Shown piece by piece: positions 7,874 to 33,946 of a stretch of 64,000 nt of DNA. The position numbers and the translations under genes are program-made. Source of the stretch: Kiritimatiellia bacterium. GTDB taxonomy: Bacteria; Verrucomicrobiota; Kiritimatiellia; RFP12; UBA1067. Position 1 is the stretch's first letter. Each line of letters starts with the position of its first letter. Location of the stretch: assembly GCA_046482825.1 (NCBI GenBank), contig JAWOEI010000092.1, positions 32,169-96,168 on the forward strand, read 5' to 3'. Under the pieces are notes generated by a model, which was given only the letters and a program-made list of their open reading frames with translations, made no database searches and had not been told where the DNA came from.

Positions 7874-9070
7874 TTATTCAACGTAGTAGGTTCTGAGCAG
7901 CCGCATAAAATGCTCATCGTTGGCCACATCAAGAATACGCATCTCACGGCGGGCGTTCTCCACTGAATCTGAGGCATGCGCGGCGTTAATCATGATATTA
8001 GTTCCGAACTCACGGCGTATAGATCCTACACGGGCCTTCCGGGGATCAGTTGCCCCCAGTATATCGCGGATCTTGTTCACACCGTCTATACCCTCATAGA
8101 CAATTGCAAGACACTCTTCTGTACCGGGCTTTTCGCGTTCTTCCGGCAGGCATCCGGACGGACGCCTGCCTGTCATAAATTCAACAATGTTCTCAAATTC
8201 GCGTTCTGCAAACAGGGGCGCCAGGTAATTGCACAAATCAGTCAGCTGATCGGCATCCACCGGAAAGCCGAATTCGCGTGAAAGCGCCTGCGATGCCCTG
8301 TCGGCACCGAATATATTAAAAACTTTTTTCAGATTTTCACGCACAGGCCCGTAAAATTCCTCCGCCTGCGCAACTGACATAGCGAATTTTTTAACACCCA
8401 CAATACGCAGGCCGGCACTTGAAAGCAGATCCATGATATTGCCAGCACGCAGCGAGGGCTGGCGCCAGTTATCGGGTTTCAGCATAACAAGAGTCTGCTG
8501 TATGTTCTCCCCTTCGGGAGCATCTGAAGTTCCGTGGACAATACCTGAGTCAGTTTTCAGATACGGGAACCAGATTTTCAATATTTCCTTCACATATTTC
8601 TTTGACCGTCCCACAAGCACACAGGGTTCAAAATACTCAACCTCACCGGTCGCCGGATCACGCACCAGATCACCGTAAGTATCACGCACTGTCTGTCCAC
8701 AACACCAACGCTGATTGATATCACCTGTAACTTCGTAGATTTTACGTATGGCATCTTCTCCCTCGAAAAGCAGCAACATCGAACGGTGCGGCCGTCCGGT
8801 TACAGCATCCACGCTGAACGCCCTGCGCACATAGGATGAAAACAATTCGCATTTCGCAGGATCATTTTTATCATACTGAGCCAGATAACCGGCAAAATCA
8901 TCCACCAGAGCTGTGGAGGCTCCGACCATACGCGCACCGACAAGTTTAAGATCGGTCCGGACCAGATAGCGGGCGATAATACCGCCGGTTCTGGATTTAC
9001 GTATCGAATACGGATTGATAATAACACACGCCAGCTCTCTGGACACTTCCTTCATTCTTTTTTTCCTCAA
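7874..9070 (-). CDS. tandem nucleoside-diphosphate-kinase-like protein (degenerate N-domain + His-containing C-domain)
   Basis: Two NDK-like modules: ACVIINPYSIRKSRTGGIIARYL... and TLVMLKPDNWRQPSLRAGNIMDLL...GSIRREFGTNIMINAAHASDSVENARREM. The start overlaps the cstA stop (ATGA). Confidence 0.6.
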   Translation of the reverse strand: MRKKRMKEVSRELACVIINPYSIRKSRTGGIIARYLVRTDLKLVGARMVGASTALVDDFAGYLAQYDKNDPAKCELFSSYVRRAFSVDAVTGRPHRSMLLLFEGEDAIRKIYEVTGDINQRWCCGQTVRDTYGDLVRDPATGEVEYFEPCVLVGRSKKYVKEILKIWFPYLKTDSGIVHGTSDAPEGENIQQTLVMLKPDNWRQPSLRAGNIMDLLSSAGLRIVGVKKFAMSVAQAEEFYGPVRENLKKVFNIFGADRASQALSREFGFPVDADQLTDLCNYLAPLFAEREFENIVEFMTGRRPSGCLPEEREKPGTEECLAIVYEGIDGVNKIRDILGATDPRKARVGSIRREFGTNIMINAAHASDSVENARREMRILDVANDEHFMRLLRTYYVE

Positions 9071-10782
9071 CTTTTCACAAACGAATCCTTGAGCCTTGCA
9101 GCTCCGAAAACAATAAGCATTACAGACATCAGCATCAGGCAGCCTGAAGTGACAGCCAAAACCCCTCCCTCGGAAAATCCTTTTTCCAGCCAGCTGTCAA
9201 GATTGCTTTTAAACAGCATGACTGTCGCGGTACCGCTGGTAACAAGCATAAACAGCATAGGTAATACGATAAAGCCGGTTTTACGTCCGGTTTTAAGCAA
9301 CCAGAGTGTCGTTCCCAGAAGAGTCAGTGCCGCCAGCAGCTGGTTACAGGAAGCAAAAATCGGCCATATACTCTTTGAACCGCCGCCGACAATGAGAACA
9401 CCGGTGACAAAGACAACAGCGAAAGTCGCAACAAAACGGTTGCTTGCATGTTTTCTGAATCCCGTCAGCGGCACCGACGGACTTTCGTCCTCTGATATCG
9501 AACGCGGCAGGAAAAGTTCCTGCCATGTGAAACGGGCGAGACGGGTGGCGGTATCCAGCGTTGTCATCAGGAAGGCGGCCAGGGCCAAAGAAACAAAAGT
9601 CACACCGATGTCCACAGGCACACCTATTGTTTTTGTAAAACCGGCAACCCCCTTTGCGAAAAGAATCACGTTCTTCTCTTTTGTGATGGCTTCGGCATAA
9701 TCCCCCGAGCTCATCCACGCAACGGCAATAAGAGCAATAAGAGCCAGCACTCCTTCAACCAGCATACCGCCGTACGCGATAGGCTTGAAATGTTTCTCGC
9801 TGGCCACCTGTTTGGAAGTTGTACCGGAGGATACAAGGGCATGAAAACCGGAGCAGGCGCCGCAGGCCACAGTGACAAAAAGCATGGGGAACAGCATTTC
9901 AGAAGATCCGCTGGTTGGTTTTAAAGCCGAGAAACCGGTAAAGGCATCCATTTCAATTGCGGGTGCAGAAAAGAATATTCCTATAATTCCCAGCGCCACC
10001 ATGACATACAAAAGATAGGAATTGAGATAATCGCGAGGCTGTAGCAAAATCCAGACTGGCAGAACCGATGCCACATAGCAGTACAGCAGCAGAAGGGCTG
10101 TCCAAATGTACCTGGCCGTCCCGGAGGAACAGCCCAGCACAGCTGTTAAATCCAGGGGGAAAGTGTTTCCTGCATACACACAACCGAACATCAAGGGCAC
10201 GAAAATCAGTGAGGCCTTCGTCAGATCAACCCCCCGCCTGTAAACAAAAAATCCGAAAACAACCGCCAGAGCAATGAAAAGAAGTGAGGCTGCCGCCACC
10301 TCCGGCTTGGCGATAAAGGCACCTGAAACCAGATTGGCAAAAACTGCGGCAACAAGAATCAAAGCGAACCAGCAGAATGTCAGAAAGAGAATCCGCCCCC
10401 AATAACCCATCAGCGATTCTATAACTGAGCCTATAGAACGGCCCTGATGACGGACTGAAAGAAACAAGGCGGCAAAATCATGCACAGCCCCGATAAAGAC
10501 ACTTCCGATAATAATCCAGAGGGCAACTGCGGCCCATCCGAAATGCGCCGCCATAATCGGACCGACAATAGGCCCCGCACCGGCAATACTGGCAAAATGA
10601 TGACCAAAAAGAACAGCTGGCCGGGCCGGAACATAGTCCACTCCGTCATTTCGAGATACCGCCGGAGTTTTTCGCGAGGTATCAACCCCGAAAAGTTTCT
10701 CCATCAACGAACCATAGAATCTATATGCCGCCAGAAATATAATACAACCGACAGCAAGCAGTGCTGCTCCATTCATAAACAA
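9067..10782 (-). CDS. cstA: carbon starvation protein A (peptide/pyruvate transporter family)
   Basis: 571-aa polytopic protein with the LFGHHFASIAGAGPIVGPI motif. Confidence 0.85.
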   Translation of the reverse strand: MFMNGAALLAVGCIIFLAAYRFYGSLMEKLFGVDTSRKTPAVSRNDGVDYVPARPAVLFGHHFASIAGAGPIVGPIMAAHFGWAAVALWIIIGSVFIGAVHDFAALFLSVRHQGRSIGSVIESLMGYWGRILFLTFCWFALILVAAVFANLVSGAFIAKPEVAAASLLFIALAVVFGFFVYRRGVDLTKASLIFVPLMFGCVYAGNTFPLDLTAVLGCSSGTARYIWTALLLLYCYVASVLPVWILLQPRDYLNSYLLYVMVALGIIGIFFSAPAIEMDAFTGFSALKPTSGSSEMLFPMLFVTVACGACSGFHALVSSGTTSKQVASEKHFKPIAYGGMLVEGVLALIALIAVAWMSSGDYAEAITKEKNVILFAKGVAGFTKTIGVPVDIGVTFVSLALAAFLMTTLDTATRLARFTWQELFLPRSISEDESPSVPLTGFRKHASNRFVATFAVVFVTGVLIVGGGSKSIWPIFASCNQLLAALTLLGTTLWLLKTGRKTGFIVLPMLFMLVTSGTATVMLFKSNLDSWLEKGFSEGGVLAVTSGCLMLMSVMLIVFGAARLKDSFVKS

Positions 10783-11576: not shown

Positions 11577-11652
11577 TGGTGGAGCGAAGGAGAATCGAAC
11601 TCCCGACCCCCACGTTGCGAACGTGGTGCTCTACCAATTGAGCTATCGCCCC
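11577..11652 (-). tRNA. tRNA-Ala (anticodon CGC), CCA encoded
   Basis: A 76-nt cloverleaf folded by hand: acceptor GGGGCGA/TCGCTCC with the G3:U70 Ala identity pair, anticodon loop TTCGCAA, and T-loop TTCGATT. Confidence 0.95.
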
Positions 11653-27476: not shown

Positions 27477-27569
27477 AGGCTAAAAGCAATATGAGAGTTA
27501 CGGGTTCTCATTGTGATCGCCGCACAAAAAAACGGTATTCAGTCAACTGTCTCAATAGCGGGAAAAACA

Positions 27570-30500
27570 ATGATTTTTTTTAAGAAAAGACTGGAAATGA
27601 GTCCTTGGCTGCTGATTCGTTTATTCATGCCTGTCACCCTGATTGTACCGCTTGTGAGTTACTGGTTCACATTGTACGAAAAAATTTATCCGGGCACATC
27701 GGCAGCTTTAACAGCGCAGGCAGTCAAGGTCTCCGAGTCAATTTATCTTACAAATCCTGTCTTTTCACTGGTGTCACGTCAGATAGCAGTTATCCCCTGG
27801 GAAACCCTGCCGGTCAGGCTGAACTTCTTTTCCGCTGTCTGCGGAGCAGTCGCTGTTGCGCTTTTTTACATCCTTATCGCCAGAATTACAGCTCTGCTGT
27901 CATGCGAGGATTCAGGAGGTGCCATGCAGGCACTTCCGCCGCAGATACAGAACAACGATTATGATTCCGATATAGAATCCGGTGACGGCGCGGCCGCCAT
28001 GCTTTCTCAGAATGCCACAGACTCAATGCCTGAAGAGGTCCTGCAACACAACCGCCGGACAGCCTACAGTGCAGTTCTCGGAGCTCTCGGAGCCTCTGCT
28101 GTTCTGGCGTTCTGCGGTCCTTTCTGGTTCAGTGCGACACGCCTGTATCCCTGTACCTTTGACATGATGCTGCTCTTTCTGATCATGAATCTGATCATTG
28201 CTTATGATCAGGAGGGGAAGCTGTGGACCCTGCTTTCATCCGTCTTTTTTCTGGCACTATGTTCAGTTGAATCGGCTCTGTTTCTTGTCCTGCTGCCTGT
28301 AGGCATTCTGCTTCTTTACCGATCGATGAAGCTGAGCGAGCAGTTCAGCATGGGACGGGTACTCCTGTGTATTGTCTGTGCCATTACAGGCGGCAGTCTG
28401 GCTCTGCTCATTCTGTGGAATGCAGCTGGATACTGTCAGAATATTACCGTACTGGCACCCCGAGCAATTCTGAGCGTTTTTAAGGAAACAACAGTACGGG
28501 ATGTGTTGTCGTGGCTGCCGCGTTTCGGCTGGAGCCGTATTCTCGTGTTTTTCATTTTTCCTGTAATAACAGCATTTTTTGTTTTCGCCTATTCTTTCCG
28601 CATACGCAAACCATTCCTTTTTATCGTTCAGCTGCTACTTGCGGCACTGCTCATACCCACACTGATCAACTTCAGACTTGCCCCCTGGGGTATAGTGCGT
28701 ATGATATCCGAAATTCCGGTATTGTCCTACGCCATCCTGGCTGGCATAACCGGCATATTGACTGCATCCCTCCATCTAATGAGGGAGATGTACATAGAAC
28801 AGCTGGACGACGAACTGGATTTTTATGAATACAGAGACAATCCCTATGTCTGTCGGATCGGATCTCTGCTGTGCTGGCCCCTTTTTCTGCTTTCACTCTG
28901 CGTACCCTTTTTCAGTTTTAAGGATATTGATCCGAATCAGGGGCGCTTTACAGATGAAATCTCCAGCACCATACATGAGCAAATCAGCAAAAAAACGCTC
29001 ATTCTGGATATGCCCTTTCTGAAAAACGAAATACTTGTCAAGGCCCGCGAAAACGACAGCGATCTCAACCTGTATCAATCAGAAACACTGAAACACGGCA
29101 TAGTATCCGCAAAGTATCTTGAAAGCATAAAGCAGAGTCCGGAGTTTCAGAATTTCAAGTACAGACTCATCAATGCCGCTGAAATCTCAACCTACTCCTT
29201 TATGCGTGAATGGCTGGCACTCGATCCGAAGGCATACACAAAAATAGCCATTTTCAGCTATCCCGGTACAATCCGTAAACTCGGCTATATCGCCGTTCCT
29301 GAAGGTTTCTTCCTCGAACTATTGCCGGCGGACAGAGAGATCGACTCTGACAGGCTGGTTAACAAATTCTTTGAATTTGCCGATTCCATGCACCCTTATA
29401 TGTTCAGTAAATCACAAAACGAAATTAAACTTCTTACAAATCACAGAAATGCATACCGAAAGCAGCTCGCATTCGTCGGCAATGAATTAGCGACACTGCT
29501 GATTGAAAAAAGGCAGTATAAAAAAGCTGCAAAAGTTCTTAAACACTGTTCTTTTCTCTCCCCGAACAATCTCAGCGTTCTACTGAACAGGTATCATCTG
29601 GTAAAAGACCGCGGAATTTATCCTGTCAGTCGTAAGTCCATAGAACTGAAACTTGCGGAATACCCCCCCGACCGCGAGCTGCTGAACACATCTGTGGCTC
29701 AGCTGCAAAATCAGAGCGGCACTCTGGCGAATACGGAAATTTTCGAGTTTGCAAAAAAACGTTTCTGGACAAAATCCAATCTGTTTAAAAATCTATCCGT
29801 AAATCAGATGGCTGTCGATCTAGATCCGCTAGTTGAACTGCGCAATAAAAAACAGCTTCTGTACGGCAGTATAAGCAGAAAAACCGCCGCCAATGAATAC
29901 AAGGAAGCTGAAAGTCAATTGAATATTCTGCTGGATTTTGACGACAGCGACCATTTTGCCCTGATTCACAAAGCCAAGGTCGCCATACTCCGGGAAAACC
30001 TGCCTGAAGCAGGGCTATGGATGGATCTTGCGAAAGAAGCGGGAGTATCACCGGAAAAGCTTCTCTGGCATAAAGCCGCTGTTCTGAAACTGCGGAATAA
30101 AACAGATGAAGCGCTTCGTATGCTCAATGACGTTATCCCCGACCATCCTGGCAATGCCGATTTATGGTCTCTGCTCGCACAGATACTGCTGGAAAATAAA
30201 AATTTCCAGGAGCTGCAGGACAGGGTCTATCCAGCATTGAAAAACACATTATCTAAACACGAAAATTATATGTTCTACGTTGTGAGAGGGTATATTCTTA
30301 AACAACGCGGAGAAAATCAGTTAAATGCAACCCGCAAAGCATTTGTGCGTGCCCTGGAACTTAACCCCGACCTTCCGGAAATTCGCAGGGAATTGCTTGA
30401 GCTGGATATGAAACTCGGCGTTCCTGCTTTTATGGAAGAGGATGCCAAAAACGTTCTGCTGGAGTCACCCGAAAATCCCATGGCCAACAATCTGATGGGA

Positions 30501-30971
30501 CAGGTACGCCTCAGGAGGAATCAACCTGAACTGGCCCGGGATTATTTTGTCAGAAGCCTTAAATCCGAAAAAACAGCAGCAGGCCTGCGCGGTCTGGCTG
30601 AAACTCTGCTTTTAACAAAGGACAGCCGACTCGCCGAATCCTACATCAGTGAGGCCATTAAGCTTGATCCTGATAATATACAGACCCTGCATGTAAAAAC
30701 GAAAATCGCCCTGACCCTGAACAAAACTGGAGAAGCGGAGAAAGCCTTCAGAAAAGTCTATGAAAGCAAACCTGATGACCCAAGCATACGTCTGACAATG
30801 ATACGTCTTCTGATACAGCAGGGGAAACTGGAAGATGCGGCAATGCGTGTTTCAAACATGCTTGAGAAAGAGGACTATCTACCTCGCCCGGTTGTTCGGG
30901 AAGTCAAAAAGCTCGCCCGGATACTTTCACAGGAATTCCAGAATAAAAACCGGAAACAAAATGATTCTTAG
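27570..30971 (+). CDS. polytopic membrane protein (DUF2723/TMEM260-like glycosyltransferase-type N-domain, inference) fused to C-terminal TPR repeats
   Basis: About 12 hydrophobic helices in the first roughly 480 aa, followed by about 650 aa of TPR-like repeats (for example ARDYFVRSLKSEK, AESYISEAIKLDPDN). The start is uncertain: 27513 GTG, 27570 ATG or 27597 ATG. Confidence 0.5.
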   Translation: MIFFKKRLEMSPWLLIRLFMPVTLIVPLVSYWFTLYEKIYPGTSAALTAQAVKVSESIYLTNPVFSLVSRQIAVIPWETLPVRLNFFSAVCGAVAVALFYILIARITALLSCEDSGGAMQALPPQIQNNDYDSDIESGDGAAAMLSQNATDSMPEEVLQHNRRTAYSAVLGALGASAVLAFCGPFWFSATRLYPCTFDMMLLFLIMNLIIAYDQEGKLWTLLSSVFFLALCSVESALFLVLLPVGILLLYRSMKLSEQFSMGRVLLCIVCAITGGSLALLILWNAAGYCQNITVLAPRAILSVFKETTVRDVLSWLPRFGWSRILVFFIFPVITAFFVFAYSFRIRKPFLFIVQLLLAALLIPTLINFRLAPWGIVRMISEIPVLSYAILAGITGILTASLHLMREMYIEQLDDELDFYEYRDNPYVCRIGSLLCWPLFLLSLCVPFFSFKDIDPNQGRFTDEISSTIHEQISKKTLILDMPFLKNEILVKARENDSDLNLYQSETLKHGIVSAKYLESIKQSPEFQNFKYRLINAAEISTYSFMREWLALDPKAYTKIAIFSYPGTIRKLGYIAVPEGFFLELLPADREIDSDRLVNKFFEFADSMHPYMFSKSQNEIKLLTNHRNAYRKQLAFVGNELATLLIEKRQYKKAAKVLKHCSFLSPNNLSVLLNRYHLVKDRGIYPVSRKSIELKLAEYPPDRELLNTSVAQLQNQSGTLANTEIFEFAKKRFWTKSNLFKNLSVNQMAVDLDPLVELRNKKQLLYGSISRKTAANEYKEAESQLNILLDFDDSDHFALIHKAKVAILRENLPEAGLWMDLAKEAGVSPEKLLWHKAAVLKLRNKTDEALRMLNDVIPDHPGNADLWSLLAQILLENKNFQELQDRVYPALKNTLSKHENYMFYVVRGYILKQRGENQLNATRKAFVRALELNPDLPEIRRELLELDMKLGVPAFMEEDAKNVLLESPENPMANNLMGQVRLRRNQPELARDYFVRSLKSEKTAAGLRGLAETLLLTKDSRLAESYISEAIKLDPDNIQTLHVKTKIALTLNKTGEAEKAFRKVYESKPDDPSIRLTMIRLLIQQGKLEDAAMRVSNMLEKEDYLPRPVVREVKKLARILSQEFQNKNRKQNDS

Positions 30972-31890
30972 ATTTTTCGCCTATCTGCAGTATCTGCTGA
31001 TACGAGTCCTTGGATTTCTGTATGAATTAATTCCTCCGTCCAAGGCCTACTCTCTCGGCTCGTGCATAGCACGCCCTTTCTACCGCATTCTGAGGGAAAG
31101 AAGAACTGTCGCAATCGAAAACATACTCAAAGCAGGTATAACTGAAAGCAGAAATGAAGCCGACCGCATTGCCAGCAAAGCTTTTGCTCATCTCGGGGGC
31201 CATATCTGCGAGGCTTTCAAGGTTCCGGAAGTTATCAATAAAGAGAACTGGGAAGATCATATTGTTTTCGAATGTTCTGAAGAATGCCGCAAACTGGTTT
31301 TCGACGAGCGGGAAAAACCTTTTATACTCGTAACAGGACATATAGGAGCCTGGGAAACGGGGATCAGCCTTATGTCTTTCACCCGCCCTGTGATCGCCAT
31401 TGCCCGTAAAATGAACAATCCCTTTGTTCAAAAATTCATGGAAACTCACCATTTCCGCGGCGCTATAACTGTTATAGACAAGAACAAAGGGCTCACTCCC
31501 GATGTCATTCGCAAATGGAAACGGACAGGTGCTGTGCTGGCGGTTATGATGGATCAGCATGCAGGCCGTAAAAACGGCATCCTTATCGATTTCATGGGGC
31601 GTAAAGCACACACACACACATCTCCCGCCCGTCTGCATCTTCGTTCCGGCATACCGGTTGTTGTAGGCGCCGTCATCCGCGAAGGACCCTTGAAATATCG
31701 TGTAATAGGTGGAAACCCCATACGCTTTGAATCCACCGGCAACCGCGAAACCGATATTAAAGAGCTGTTGACCCTCTTCACCCAACGACTGGAAAATTTT
31801 GTACGCCAGTATCCAGAACAGTACCTTTGGGCTCATAAAAGATGGCGTAAGCTCAGACCCCTGAAAAATAAAAGCCGATCAAAAGTATAA
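30961..31890 (+). CDS. lipid A biosynthesis (Kdo)2-lipid IVA acyltransferase family protein (LpxL/HtrB-like)
   Basis: An N-terminal TM helix, the HIGAWE (HX4D/E) acyltransferase motif, and a C-terminal YPEQYLWAHKRW typical of the family. ATG 30961 overlaps the upstream gene by 11 nt. Confidence 0.7.
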   Translation: MILRFFAYLQYLLIRVLGFLYELIPPSKAYSLGSCIARPFYRILRERRTVAIENILKAGITESRNEADRIASKAFAHLGGHICEAFKVPEVINKENWEDHIVFECSEECRKLVFDEREKPFILVTGHIGAWETGISLMSFTRPVIAIARKMNNPFVQKFMETHHFRGAITVIDKNKGLTPDVIRKWKRTGAVLAVMMDQHAGRKNGILIDFMGRKAHTHTSPARLHLRSGIPVVVGAVIREGPLKYRVIGGNPIRFESTGNRETDIKELLTLFTQRLENFVRQYPEQYLWAHKRWRKLRPLKNKSRSKV

Positions 31891-31978
31891 TCCGTCGTGT
31901 GTTCCCGCTTTTTTTCCACTGCTCAGGAACATCTCTCCGGCAAGCACCGTAAAAATCACAGTCGCTTTTACCGGATAC

Positions 31979-32017
31979 AAAAAAACGGCGGGTAAAAGCT
32001 GTATGCTTCTACCCGCC
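31979..32017 (-). terminator. intrinsic terminator GGCGGGTA-N15-TACCCGCC followed by G+T7 (minus strand)
   Basis: An 8-bp GC-rich stem and a 7-U tract. It lies 274 nt downstream of the serine-hydrolase stop. Confidence 0.8.
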
Positions 32018-32138
32018 GCCAGGGAGGACATATATTAATTAATGACGCTCATGGTTTTTACCATGTTGCACTTACACGGGGGAAGTGATGTGCAATTCGT
32101 CACTCTTTTTATTAACAACCTGGGGGAGGTTGTTTGAT
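31979..32138 (-). ncRNA. predicted ~160-nt sRNA with C-rich loops (novel candidate)
   Basis: Bounded by a consensus promoter and a strong intrinsic terminator, with no plausible ORF inside. It has three hairpins plus the terminator. The C-rich motifs are UCCCCCA and UUCCCCC in apical loops and CCUCCC in a single-stranded stretch. Confidence 0.55.
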
Positions 32139-32144
32139 GTGTGC

Positions 32145-32173
32145 ATATTACTATACGCACTAACTGATGTCAA
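32145..32173 (-). promoter_or_regulatory. sigma70-type promoter TTGACA-17-TAATAT with upstream A-tracts
   Basis: -35 at 32173-32168 and -10 at 32150-32145, with an exact 17-nt spacer. An A-rich UP-like stretch occupies about 32180-32205. Confidence 0.55.
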
Positions 32174-32290
32174 CAGAACGCACTCATTTTTTTACTTTTT
32201 TTTTCAGCTGGATGAATTAACAAAGTAAATGCACCACTCTGTGATCGGCGGTGACACATTCAGTCTGTCTAACAATGCCATATACGCACA

Positions 32291-33496
32291 CTACTCCAAC
32301 ACTTTTGCTGCTGCGGTCTGGAATACCATGCGGACAGGTGAATTGTCTCCATTCGGGAAACCTCTGCGTTGAATCATCAGAATGTAAATCGTCTGATTAA
32401 CAGGATCAGCCCAGCTCTGCGTTCCATAAGCCCCGCCATGCCCGAATGTCCCGGGATGCAGCATAGCTGTAATTCCTTGCGGCTCTTTGACTACCTGAAA
32501 TTTAATACCCCAGCTCTGGCCTTCAGTAAAACCGGTCCTGATATCACCGGACTGAGTACGAGTCAGCTCCTTCACAGCTTTTTCAGAGAGGACTCTTCGT
32601 CCTTTCCATACCCCCTTGTTCAGCATCATCTGATAGAAGTGCCACACATCCCCGGCAGTTGAAAAAAGTCCGCCGCCCGGTTTGACAGTCCGTTCCGTAT
32701 CCCACAGATCTCCTTTGATAAAATAGATTTCTGTTTCCGTCAACTCTTGGATTTTATCATTTTTAAGATAGGATTTAGCAATACGTCCAAGCTTCTGTTT
32801 CGACGGAAAAAAGGTCGTTTCTTTCATCTCAAGCGGATCAAAAAGTCGTTTCTGCAGAAATTGATCTAGCGGTTCACCTGCAACCACTTCCACCACACGG
32901 CCGAGCACATGTGTTCCCATAGTGCTGTATTTCCATTGGCTTCCCGGTTCAAACTCCAGGGGTCTCAGGGATGCCATTGCCACCAGTTCAGCCAAAGCAG
33001 TATGAGAACGGGGTTCCTCCACATTCCCGATGCCTGCAGTATGGGTTGCCACATCAAGCAGTGTTATCCTGCGAGCGGGACGTTTGAGGATCATCTTGTT
33101 TCCGGACTTCTGATCCACCATCCAGAGATCACTGAACTCAGGCAGATATTTCTCCAAATCATCATGTATATCCAATTTACCTTCATCAGCAAGCATCATT
33201 GCAGCAGCTCCGACCATAGGCTTGGTCATGGAGGCAATCCAGAAAAGATCATCTTTTTTCATAGCACGTTTTGTGTTCAGGTCTGACAGTCCCATAGCCT
33301 CATGACTGACAACCTTTCCATTCTTTGCCACCAGAGTTACCGCTCCCGCGATTTCACCATCAGCAATAAAAGGTTGAACCGCATTGCGGACAGCAGCGGA
33401 AACTTCAGCCTCTTTAATCTGGCCGTATGACAAAGACAACCACAATACCGCTGTCATTCCTACAGCTGCTGACAAAAGTTTTTTTCCTGTTCTCAT
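32291..33496 (-). CDS. serine hydrolase, beta-lactamase/transpeptidase-like (class C / esterase family)
   Basis: ASMTKPMV contains the SxxK motif; also a later YST and a GHGGAYG box. Signal-like N-terminus MRTGKKLLSAAVGMTAVLWLSLSYG. The start is trimmed to ATG 33496. Confidence 0.7.
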   Translation of the reverse strand: MRTGKKLLSAAVGMTAVLWLSLSYGQIKEAEVSAAVRNAVQPFIADGEIAGAVTLVAKNGKVVSHEAMGLSDLNTKRAMKKDDLFWIASMTKPMVGAAAMMLADEGKLDIHDDLEKYLPEFSDLWMVDQKSGNKMILKRPARRITLLDVATHTAGIGNVEEPRSHTALAELVAMASLRPLEFEPGSQWKYSTMGTHVLGRVVEVVAGEPLDQFLQKRLFDPLEMKETTFFPSKQKLGRIAKSYLKNDKIQELTETEIYFIKGDLWDTERTVKPGGGLFSTAGDVWHFYQMMLNKGVWKGRRVLSEKAVKELTRTQSGDIRTGFTEGQSWGIKFQVVKEPQGITAMLHPGTFGHGGAYGTQSWADPVNQTIYILMIQRRGFPNGDNSPVRMVFQTAAAKVLE

Positions 33497-33946
33497 CTTA
33501 CTTCTCCCTGAACTGCCTGCAGCCGCCAGTCTGTCTGGCTGCGCACAGACGGACACATGACTGACTACGCATGATAATAAAAGATATACGCAGACCTCGC
33601 TTTTATGACTGCATTAGCTCGTGAGTAAATTTATACAGAAATTCTCAACTTTTATCAACGGCTATCTTCCGGAACTAAATTGTAATATTAAATGCGCCAG
33701 GATTTCATTATGCCTGACAGCATTTCAACTCTCTTTCAAATATATTTCTTCTCTGATGCGCAGCTCAGTATCCGGCGCGGATAGTTATCAACCCGCTCTT
33801 AGATCTGCCGAATTTTTTTTTCTTAGTTTCTTATATCGGCAGCCCCGGGAATGGAACGATTAGCCTTGAACAAAACGCCCTATAATCATATCCTGTTGTT
33901 TTTAATTCAAGTATCCCGCAAAAGTTCATAGCGTGTCTGTGTTCTT

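Follow-up and report, generated by a model that had tools for sequence, protein, structure and literature searches.

Does the 400-bp gap between two convergent genes of an uncultured Kiritimatiellia bacterium hold a gene of its own, and if so, what might its product do? The gap lies in a 64,000-nucleotide stretch of contig JAWOEI010000092.1 (assembly GCA_046482825.1, positions 32,169 to 96,168 of the forward strand), hereafter the window, and separates the stop codon of an LpxL-like acyltransferase gene (31890) from that of a serine hydrolase gene (32291), as a first-pass annotation of the window had described. That annotation had proposed that the gap carries an orphan transcription unit for a structured small RNA (sRNA) of about 160 nt, whose exposed C-rich motifs resemble anti-Shine-Dalgarno (anti-SD) sequences. 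Our analysis leaves little doubt that the locus is a real sRNA gene, and we lean towards the view that its product is a new, conserved and independently transcribed small regulatory RNA of uncultured Kiritimatiellia that acts in trans through C-rich seeds like those of RsaE and RoxS.

Promoter, fold and terminator of the sRNA gene

The promoter named by the first-pass annotation was borne out by the sequence and by a consensus promoter scan. On the minus strand, the -35 hexamer TTGACA (32173-32168) is followed after a 17-nt spacer by the -10 hexamer TAATAT (32150-32145); together they match the consensus at 10 of 12 positions and form the top-scoring promoter-like site within 31000-33800. The A-tracts said to occupy the UP-element position can be read in the sequence as A9 (32204-32196) and A7 (32193-32187), about -49 to -66 from the predicted start. 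With the start placed at the A that lies 7 nt past the -10 hexamer, the predicted transcript spans 160 nt (32138-31979, minus strand) and ends, as had been claimed, at a strong intrinsic terminator, in which a terminator scan identified a 16-bp hairpin (32020-31984; 9 of the 16 pairs are G-C, and the loop is 5 nt) and a run of seven U residues (31985-31979). This near-consensus sigma-70-type promoter with its UP-like A-tract would drive synthesis of an RNA of about 160 nt that stops at the terminator. From sequence we infer that the unit is transcribed, that its product acts by base pairing, and what its targets may be.

The minimum free energy (MFE) of the transcript is -58.7 kcal/mol, compared with -29.8±3.4 kcal/mol in 200 dinucleotide shuffles, none of which folded as well (z = -8.4). 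From its 5' end, the fold consists of a terminal hairpin (P1), a three-way junction formed by a stem (P2) and two hairpins (P2a and P2b), an A/U-rich single strand, and the terminator. P1 (32134-32114; AACAACCU[CCCCC]AGGUUGUU, loop in brackets) contains the first C-rich motif, CCUCCCCCAGG (32129-32119), and its loop has an unpaired probability of 1.0. The junction domain (32104-32041) is closed by P2, in which AGUGACG (32104-32098) pairs with CGUCAUU (32047-32041). Within it, P2a (32095-32066), UUGCAC-AU-CAC[UUCCCCC]GUG-UAA-GUGCAA, presents the second motif as its loop (32084-32078), also unpaired with a probability of 1.0, and P2b (32065-32050), CAUGGU[AAAA]ACCAUG, carries an A-rich loop. The single strand before the terminator (32040-32021, unpaired probability 0.92-0.95) is about 20 nt long, ends in the third motif, CCUCCC (32027-32022), and forms the 5' part of a 26-nt block, AUAUAUGUCCUCCCUGGCGGCGGGUA, whose conservation is described below. 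Taken over the C5 loop, the UUCCCCC loop and CCUCCCU, the unpaired probabilities are 0.95-1.0, and the C-rich motifs are therefore as accessible as had been proposed. The three hairpins that the first-pass annotation had drawn by eye are those of the MFE fold, but the stem that encloses two of them in a three-way junction (GUGACG/CGUCAU) had been overlooked.

We also considered whether the transcript encodes a small protein. The 9-codon ATG frame that had been given as the only one is present in the window, but a second AUG, within AUAUAUGUCC, starts a frame that stays open past the terminator. The 9-codon frame is missing from the major clade of homologs, and the AUG frame that is conserved has neither a stop before the terminator nor a Shine-Dalgarno (SD) site; because it lacks an SD site, we did not take it as coding. 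A small protein product was accordingly rejected, there being no conserved reading frame with a stop and no SD site.

Distribution and covariation of the RNA family

The first homolog, L003, was found among 82 loci with nhmmer (E = 6e-16). It lies directly after an LpxL-like gene, in convergent orientation, and the protein encoded by this gene is only 49% identical to its counterpart in the window. The two loci have in common the promoter hexamers, the C-rich loops and the 26-nt block AUAUAUGUCCUCCCUGGCGGCGGGUA, and the differences between their stems are compensatory. One scan of metagenome contigs for the pattern CTCCCCCAGG-N(20-50)-CCCC-N(30-60)-TCCTCCCTGG returned 73 loci. Counting L003 and the window, the full unit is present in 38 loci, whose 32 distinct sequences make up alignment A3 and from which we built a covariance model, R1. 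This model scores the window at 128 bits (E = 1e-28) and detects 36 full-length copies in the 73 pattern loci, at 113-193 bits; its only other hits are to the terminator's mirror image. Of the 73 pattern matches, about half are false, and all of these were rejected by the covariance model. Some of them (L083, L089, L102, L103, L107, L114, L118, L126, L128 and L131) represent a conserved protein-coding stretch in which the anchors are exactly 76 nt apart; it reads ...ILPQA...KDSSL..., looks like an ABC-transporter permease and is unrelated to the RNA. The remaining false matches are GC-rich chance hits.

Homologs were also reached through the protein neighbour, without the DNA pattern. This route yielded L003, L156, L158, L160, L161, L162 and L163, as well as L159, whose copy is cut by the end of its contig; at L157 the contig stops before the sRNA site, 11 nt past the LpxL-like gene. 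L163 corresponds to NCBI assembly GCA_028686345.1, and its LpxL-like protein is labelled Kiritimatiellae bacterium by NCBI; L160 corresponds to GCA_964635695.1. In total, about 45 loci from some two dozen datasets were collected, all of them from uncultured Kiritimatiellia of the Planctomycetota-Verrucomicrobiota-Chlamydiota (PVC) group, as indicated by the neighbouring proteins and by named metagenome-assembled genomes. The description of the unit as an orphan thus has to be given up, as the family has at least 45 members and is tightly linked to the downstream LpxL-like gene. Each homolog keeps the same promoter hexamers, upstream A-tract and terminator at fixed positions.

The covariance model found no second copy in the window or in any other locus, so that there is one copy per locus. 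It likewise found no homolog beside the more distant LpxL-like genes of 79 GTDB loci apart from L003 (rumen Kiritimatiellae, Lentisphaerae, Victivallales and others), and no sequence similar to the unit is present in E. coli genomes; the window is not enterobacterial. The contigs of L157, L159 and L143 break at or inside the sRNA gene, in L143 at the 3' end of the RNA. Such breaks would be expected if near-identical copies in co-occurring strains act as an inter-genome repeat during assembly.

The homologs allowed us to ask whether the predicted stems are maintained by selection. RNAalifold placed 44 pairs on the 32 sequences of A3, and 20 of these show changes on both sides, compared with 9.9±1.7 in shuffled alignments (none of 500 shuffles reached 20) and with 3-10 in controls in which the partners were slid by 1-3 columns. 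In this structure 96.1% of cells are paired. Most of the covariation falls in the junction stem P2, where five of the six pairs have changes on both sides, and in the lower stem of P2a, where all four pairs show compensatory changes. P1 keeps 100% pairing in 31 distinct sequences and shows compensatory changes at two pairs, and the lower nine pairs of the terminator never vary. With promoter and terminator conserved at fixed positions and stems that covary, the claim of a discrete, structured, non-coding unit of about 160 nt is upheld, and the covariation, together with the z-score of -8.4, excludes a chance origin.

Two main groups of sequences can be recognised. The window-like clade consists of the window, L111, L143, L147, L156, L158 and L160-L163; eight sequences from this clade alone reproduce the MFE fold of the window with double changes at 12 of 45 pairs, and support both P2 and P2b, the latter with compensatory changes at four of its seven pairs. 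In the major clade (for example, L084), P2b carries a fourth C-rich loop, UUCCCCCC, at the place where the window-like clade is A-rich. The count of three C-rich motifs (CCCCC, UUCCCCC and CCUCCC) therefore holds for the window and its clade, but most members of the family have four.

Conservation also extends to the unpaired segments. The block AUAUAUGUCCUCCCUGGCGGCGGGUA, which takes in the lower terminator stem, does not vary among the 32 sequences of A3 or among the eight full-length sequences obtained independently of the pattern, and L159 keeps the portion that lies on its contig. Loop 2 is conserved as (C/U)UCCCCC and is invariant in the eight pattern-independent sequences. Loop 1 tolerates a C-to-U change, given that it reads CCUUCCCCAGG rather than CCUCCCCCAGG in L162 (6901-7066) and L163 (6899-7065); members of this kind were missed by the pattern scan because the pattern fixed CTCCCCCAGG, CCCC and TCCTCCCTGG. 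Overall, the family varies in its stems but little or not at all in its loops and in the single-stranded CCUCCC, a seed-like pattern.

Comparison of 35 unique promoters extended these observations to the DNA upstream of the RNA. TTGACA is invariant in 35 of 35, the -10 hexamer has the form TAnnAT at a spacing of 17-18 nt in all of them, and A/T-rich tracts occur in the same place upstream of the -35 hexamer in every case, a feature counted in 36 unique promoters; upstream of about -65, these 35 promoter regions contain no alignable sequence. The comparison also revealed that 33 of the 35 promoters have an inverted repeat whose centre coincides with the upstream edge of the -10 hexamer and whose arms are clade-specific: GGGGTG/CACCCC (up to 8 bp) in the major clade, GGAGC/GCTCC in L109 and L139, and GTGC(A)TA/TATGCAC in the window-like clade. 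In the window itself, it reads GTGC-N12-GCAC (32160-32141, minus strand). An extra copy of the half-site, GTGCG (32183-32179, minus strand), lies upstream of the -35 hexamer and may be part of the same element; GGGTGCG abuts the -35 hexamer in all window-like homologs, and the major clade has the inverted form, CACCCC, at this place. The palindrome over the -10 hexamer is thus a candidate operator, at which a regulator, possibly a repressor, would bind. It has the look of an operator in co-evolution with a regulator, or of a DNA hairpin under selection. No regulator gene was found to be conserved beside the sRNA gene, the upstream neighbours being metabolic and clade-dependent.

These neighbours bear on the possibility that there is no independent gene here, and that the element is the read-through 3' untranslated region of the hydrolase gene or a chance match to a promoter and a terminator. 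The hydrolase gene (33556-32291, minus strand; PF00144, class-C beta-lactamase-fold serine hydrolase) is on the same strand as the sRNA gene, ends 117 nt upstream of the -35 hexamer and is separated from the promoter by no terminator that our scan could find, and some of its transcripts may run into the sRNA gene. The upstream gene, however, varies across the family, from the hydrolase in the window to PdxA with a CBM48-like gene, PurH-like, PpdK-like and other genes elsewhere, while the promoter hexamers, RNA and terminator are retained in the approximately 45 homologs, and for this reason the RNA is not a mere extension of the hydrolase transcript. We also attempted to follow synteny through the hydrolase, without success: its closest homologs, P0002 and P0006 (73-77% identical), occur in other contexts and have no similar sequence downstream, and the exact protein of the window is absent from the records searched. 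Those of its nearest relatives that are named are proteins of Verrucomicrobia or Planctomycetota metagenome-assembled genomes (MAGs). Read-through or chance is, in our judgement, highly improbable as an account of the locus. The upstream flank looks like a rearrangement-prone junction across the family, and in L162 a gene with a faint match to the transposase domain DDE_Tnp_1 (8535-10019) lies about 1.5 kb upstream of the sRNA gene.

Possible modes of action and the convergent acyltransferase operon

How might this RNA act? Several features expected of a trans-encoded base-pairing sRNA are present in the family, namely a positionally conserved predicted promoter, a Rho-independent terminator, covarying stems with conserved unpaired segments, and the lack of a conserved open reading frame (ORF). 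Other traits common in base-pairing sRNAs are the 5'-terminal hairpin and the A/U-rich single strand that adjoins a terminator with a long U-tail. In the mechanism that we propose, the C-rich tracts would pair antisense, and in trans, with the SD regions (GGAG, GGGAG, GGGGA) of several mRNAs, and this pairing would prevent the initiation of translation and in many cases destabilise the mRNA, in the manner of RsaE and RoxS. Purine-rich SD-like sequences complementary to the C-rich tracts (GGAG, GGGAG, GGGGAG) do precede start codons in the window, for example those of the TIM gene and the hydrolase gene.

Several observations weigh against this reading. Apart from the antisense strand of the RNA itself, neither the invariant block nor the loops have an extended complement in the window or in approximately 390 kb of family loci. 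Start regions in the window do pair somewhat better with the C-rich motifs than random windows in a duplex-energy scan (median of -9.95 kcal/mol for 46 start regions versus -8.1 kcal/mol, p = 0.002), but the starts were chosen by their likeness to SD sites, which makes the shift circular, and we give it no weight as evidence. The two genes of the convergent operon, which encode a tetratricopeptide repeat (TPR) glycosyltransferase-type protein and the LpxL-like protein, have start regions that are not G-rich, and we rejected this operon as a translational target. In the metagenome set, the search pattern itself accounts for some of the apparent invariance of loop 1 and of UCCUCCCUGG. Finally, a 26-nt invariant block exceeds what a seed needs, which suggests that AUAUAUGUCCUCCCUGGCGGCGGGUA reflects a further constraint, such as binding by a protein or a function exerted by the opposite strand. 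As sequence searches did not pinpoint targets, we regard pairing of the C-rich tracts with G-rich SD sites as an even call, by analogy with RsaE and RoxS.

A function of the opposite strand would involve the convergent operon. In the window, the LpxL-like gene (30961-31890, plus strand; Pfam PF03279 of the lipid A/lysophospholipid acyltransferase family, E = 2e-34) is recorded as encoding 309 aa and ends 88 nt from the sRNA 3' end. Its relatives in GTDB genomes are at most 49% identical and come from MAGs labelled Kiritimatiellae or Lentisphaerae, and those in a large protein collection reach 71% identity, the named ones being 'Kiritimatiellia/Kiritimatiellae bacterium'. The start of the gene is overlapped by the end of a TPR/TMEM260-like glycosyltransferase-type gene, identified from domain matches (27513-30971, plus strand), with which it forms an operon. 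The longest LpxL ORF in the window begins at 30835 and would overlap the TPR/TMEM260-like gene by 136 nt; the recorded call begins near 30961. In relatives that include L156, L162 and L163, the two genes share a 4-nt overlap (ATGA), an arrangement that suggests translational coupling. The TPR/TMEM260-like gene precedes the LpxL-like gene in all loci long enough to show it.

The linkage of the sRNA gene to this operon is close to obligatory. Of 37 metagenome loci, 34 have the LpxL-like gene next to the sRNA gene in convergent orientation, as do all protein-derived loci that extend beyond the acyltransferase gene. The sRNA 3' end is usually 1-14 nt from the LpxL-like stop codon and, among the metagenome loci, usually 2-14 nt. 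For L160 and L161, annotation even places the end of the LpxL-like coding region 18-19 nt inside the covariance-model hit, which was confirmed in the sequence for L160. These observations raise the possibility that the sRNA is a cis-antisense partner of the acyltransferase operon, with which it would be perfectly complementary at the 3' ends of both transcripts. Duplex formation or polymerase collision would then set the 3' end, the stability or the level of the operon mRNA; conversely, the tail of the operon mRNA could titrate the sRNA, and a role of this kind may coexist with action in trans. In line with such a partnership, the linkage has been kept despite an identity of only about 50% between the LpxL-like proteins and a lack of conservation on the other flank, and constraints on both strands could account for the 26-nt invariant block. 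There is also a precedent in E. coli, where GadY overlaps the 3' end of gadX.

The same question can be put to the terminator, which might serve both transcripts. On the sRNA strand, the hairpin is followed by a family mean of 7.9 U in 9 positions, versus 0 in 9 on the other strand, and its energy is -23.5 kcal/mol compared with -18.3 kcal/mol on the LpxL strand, about 5 kcal/mol weaker. With no U-tract and a weaker hairpin on the LpxL strand, we rejected a shared canonical bidirectional terminator; the operon has no canonical terminator at this place, and its mRNA therefore probably extends antisense into the sRNA gene. In the window, the sRNA gene also contains a plus-strand hairpin that resembles a terminator (32084-32104) and is followed by CTTTTTATT. 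This hairpin mirrors the 5' side of P2 and the A-rich linker, occurs only in the window-like clade, and could halt transcription that runs on from the LpxL-like operon.

A purely cis-antisense partner of the operon would need none of the conserved accessible C-rich loops, the covarying three-way junction or the strong promoter with its putative regulation. Moreover, the alignment has 155 G·U cells on the sRNA strand as opposed to 17 A·C cells; this excess and the U-tract, found on that strand only, identify the window's minus strand as the one that is folded and transcribed, and the fold as selected on the sRNA strand only. Nor is the distance to the LpxL-like stop fixed: the window has 88 nt, L111 about 106 nt and L156 about 277 nt, all more than is usual. 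The downstream gene is a different one in L116 and L155 (L143 ends at the RNA). On balance, a role that consists in antisense pairing with the operon strikes us as possible but rather doubtful.

The other constraint that could explain the block is a protein. In this account, the C-rich loops and the 26-nt block would bind a protein that the RNA titrates or delivers, as a sponge or scaffold. Each molecule has three to four copies of one loop motif, in a number that varies by clade, the invariant block enters the terminator stem and is longer than a pairing seed would require, and the strong promoter suggests high abundance, all of which would suit such a function. To our knowledge, however, no bacterial protein recognises C-rich loops in this manner, and no candidate protein gene is conserved beside the RNA. 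The sRNA strand has no GGA motifs of the Csr/Rsm type and matches no Rfam family, those of Csr/Rsm RNAs included, and the motifs are exactly complementary to SD-like sequences in the window, for which base pairing is the simpler explanation. We consider protein binding quite unlikely as the primary function.

Action in cis and in trans might also be combined in a regulator that serves the class Kiritimatiellia as a whole and has a physical link to an envelope-lipid operon, an idea that we put forward as speculative and on the whole unlikely. Here the terminator-less tail of the operon mRNA would be perfectly complementary to the 26-nt block, such that operon mRNA and sRNA titrate each other, and the remaining C-rich loops would throttle SD-dependent translation of other genes or dock a protein. 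If this is true, acylation or glycosylation of outer-membrane lipids would be linked to global control of translation; we have not seen a hybrid cis/trans architecture of this kind described. The general interest of the locus, which we would call moderate, would be greater if the coupling to the envelope-lipid operon proves functional. Together, the conserved palindrome over the -10 hexamer and the near-obligatory coupling to the LpxL-like and TPR-glycosyltransferase genes provide experimental handles in an uncultured lineage.

Relation to known small RNAs

To place the family among known RNAs, we searched positions 31700-32500 with cmscan against Rfam 15 (4227 models) and found no family match, either at the gathering score or at E<=10; the only two hits at the permissive threshold, to mir-965 on the terminator and to a human lncRNA, had E values below about 1 and were dismissed as chance. 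Four other members of the family gave no match at E<=5. The sole match at the gathering score in the 64-kb window, which has a G+C content of about 48-50%, is a tRNA gene (11580-11652, minus strand). The impression of the first-pass annotation that the RNA is none of SRP, 6S, tmRNA or RNase P RNA was therefore correct, and the fold agrees: 6S RNA is a long irregular duplex with a central bubble and paired 5' and 3' ends, and the consensus here consists of separate hairpins, with ends that do not pair with each other. A full-text literature search found no relevant paper on sRNAs of Kiritimatiellia, and no description of regulatory RNAs in Kiritimatiellia or the wider PVC group. With about 45 sequences, 20 covarying pairs and a defined promoter, terminator and strand, the set could be deposited as a new RNA family, and its model could be used to annotate MAGs from digesters, sediments and lakes.

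Two known systems resemble the family in part. CsrB and RsmZ sequester CsrA and RsmA through multiple GGA motifs in their loops. They have in common with the Kiritimatiellia RNA several copies of one short motif in hairpin loops, along with a strong promoter and a terminator. The motif here, however, is C-rich rather than GGA and is present in only three to four copies; the loops on the transcribed strand read CCCCC, UUCCCCC and AAAA, and the GGA loops of a CsrB/RsmZ-type sponge are absent. GadY and gadX show the same convergence of an sRNA with a coding gene whose 3' end it abuts or overlaps, and there, too, the mRNA has no intrinsic terminator at that point. The Kiritimatiellia RNA differs in that the overlap of the two transcripts is a prediction, with a gap of 88 nt to the gene in the window, and in having conserved accessible loops and covarying structure in addition.

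Closer parallels are offered by sRNAs with repeated C-rich motifs. The 'cuckoo' RNAs of Alphaproteobacteria (CcsR and alpha-r14 type) bear CCUCCUCCC loops, and both these and the staphylococcal UCCC-motif RNAs have repeated C-rich, anti-SD-like loop motifs with a number of hairpins that varies between relatives. RsaE/RoxS (RF01820) are sRNAs of Firmicutes (Bacillales) of roughly 100-115 nt. Repeated C-rich anti-SD-like motifs in successive hairpin loops, and variation in the number of motif hairpins, are shared by the Kiritimatiellia RNA with the staphylococcal UCCC and 'cuckoo' RNAs; it is distinguished from them by its lineage and fold, by occurring as one copy per locus rather than in tandem arrays, and by the lack of an Rfam match. 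A C-rich motif is common to staphylococcal sRNAs (PMC6158497), and RoxS/RsaE pair with G-rich or SD sequences through C-rich regions, of which they have up to four (PMC6158497; PMC5419742). Both RsaE and RoxS bind to SD sequences; ResDE/SrrAB control their promoter, in which a Rex operator is also present (PMC5419742; PMC6158497).

It is this last pair that the Kiritimatiellia RNA most resembles in design. Like RsaE and RoxS, it is a stand-alone sRNA with its own promoter and intrinsic terminator, here predicted, and it exposes several C-rich tracts in loops and in the single strand before the terminator. The regulator site of their promoter has a possible counterpart in the candidate palindrome over the -10 hexamer. 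The two differ in that five members of our family have no sequence or covariance-model similarity to RsaE/RoxS (no RF01820 match), and in that the RNA described here belongs to another phylum, that of Gram-negative PVC bacteria, is longer (about 160 nt) and is marked by a three-way junction, by a 26-nt invariant block extending into the terminator and by a near-obligatory linkage to a convergent LpxL-like gene. It is thus a new sRNA family of a known kind, the sRNAs with multiple C-rich motifs. The multi-C-rich-loop design known from Firmicutes and Alphaproteobacteria appears to have been invented independently in Kiritimatiellia, which bears on how frequently anti-SD sRNAs have arisen.

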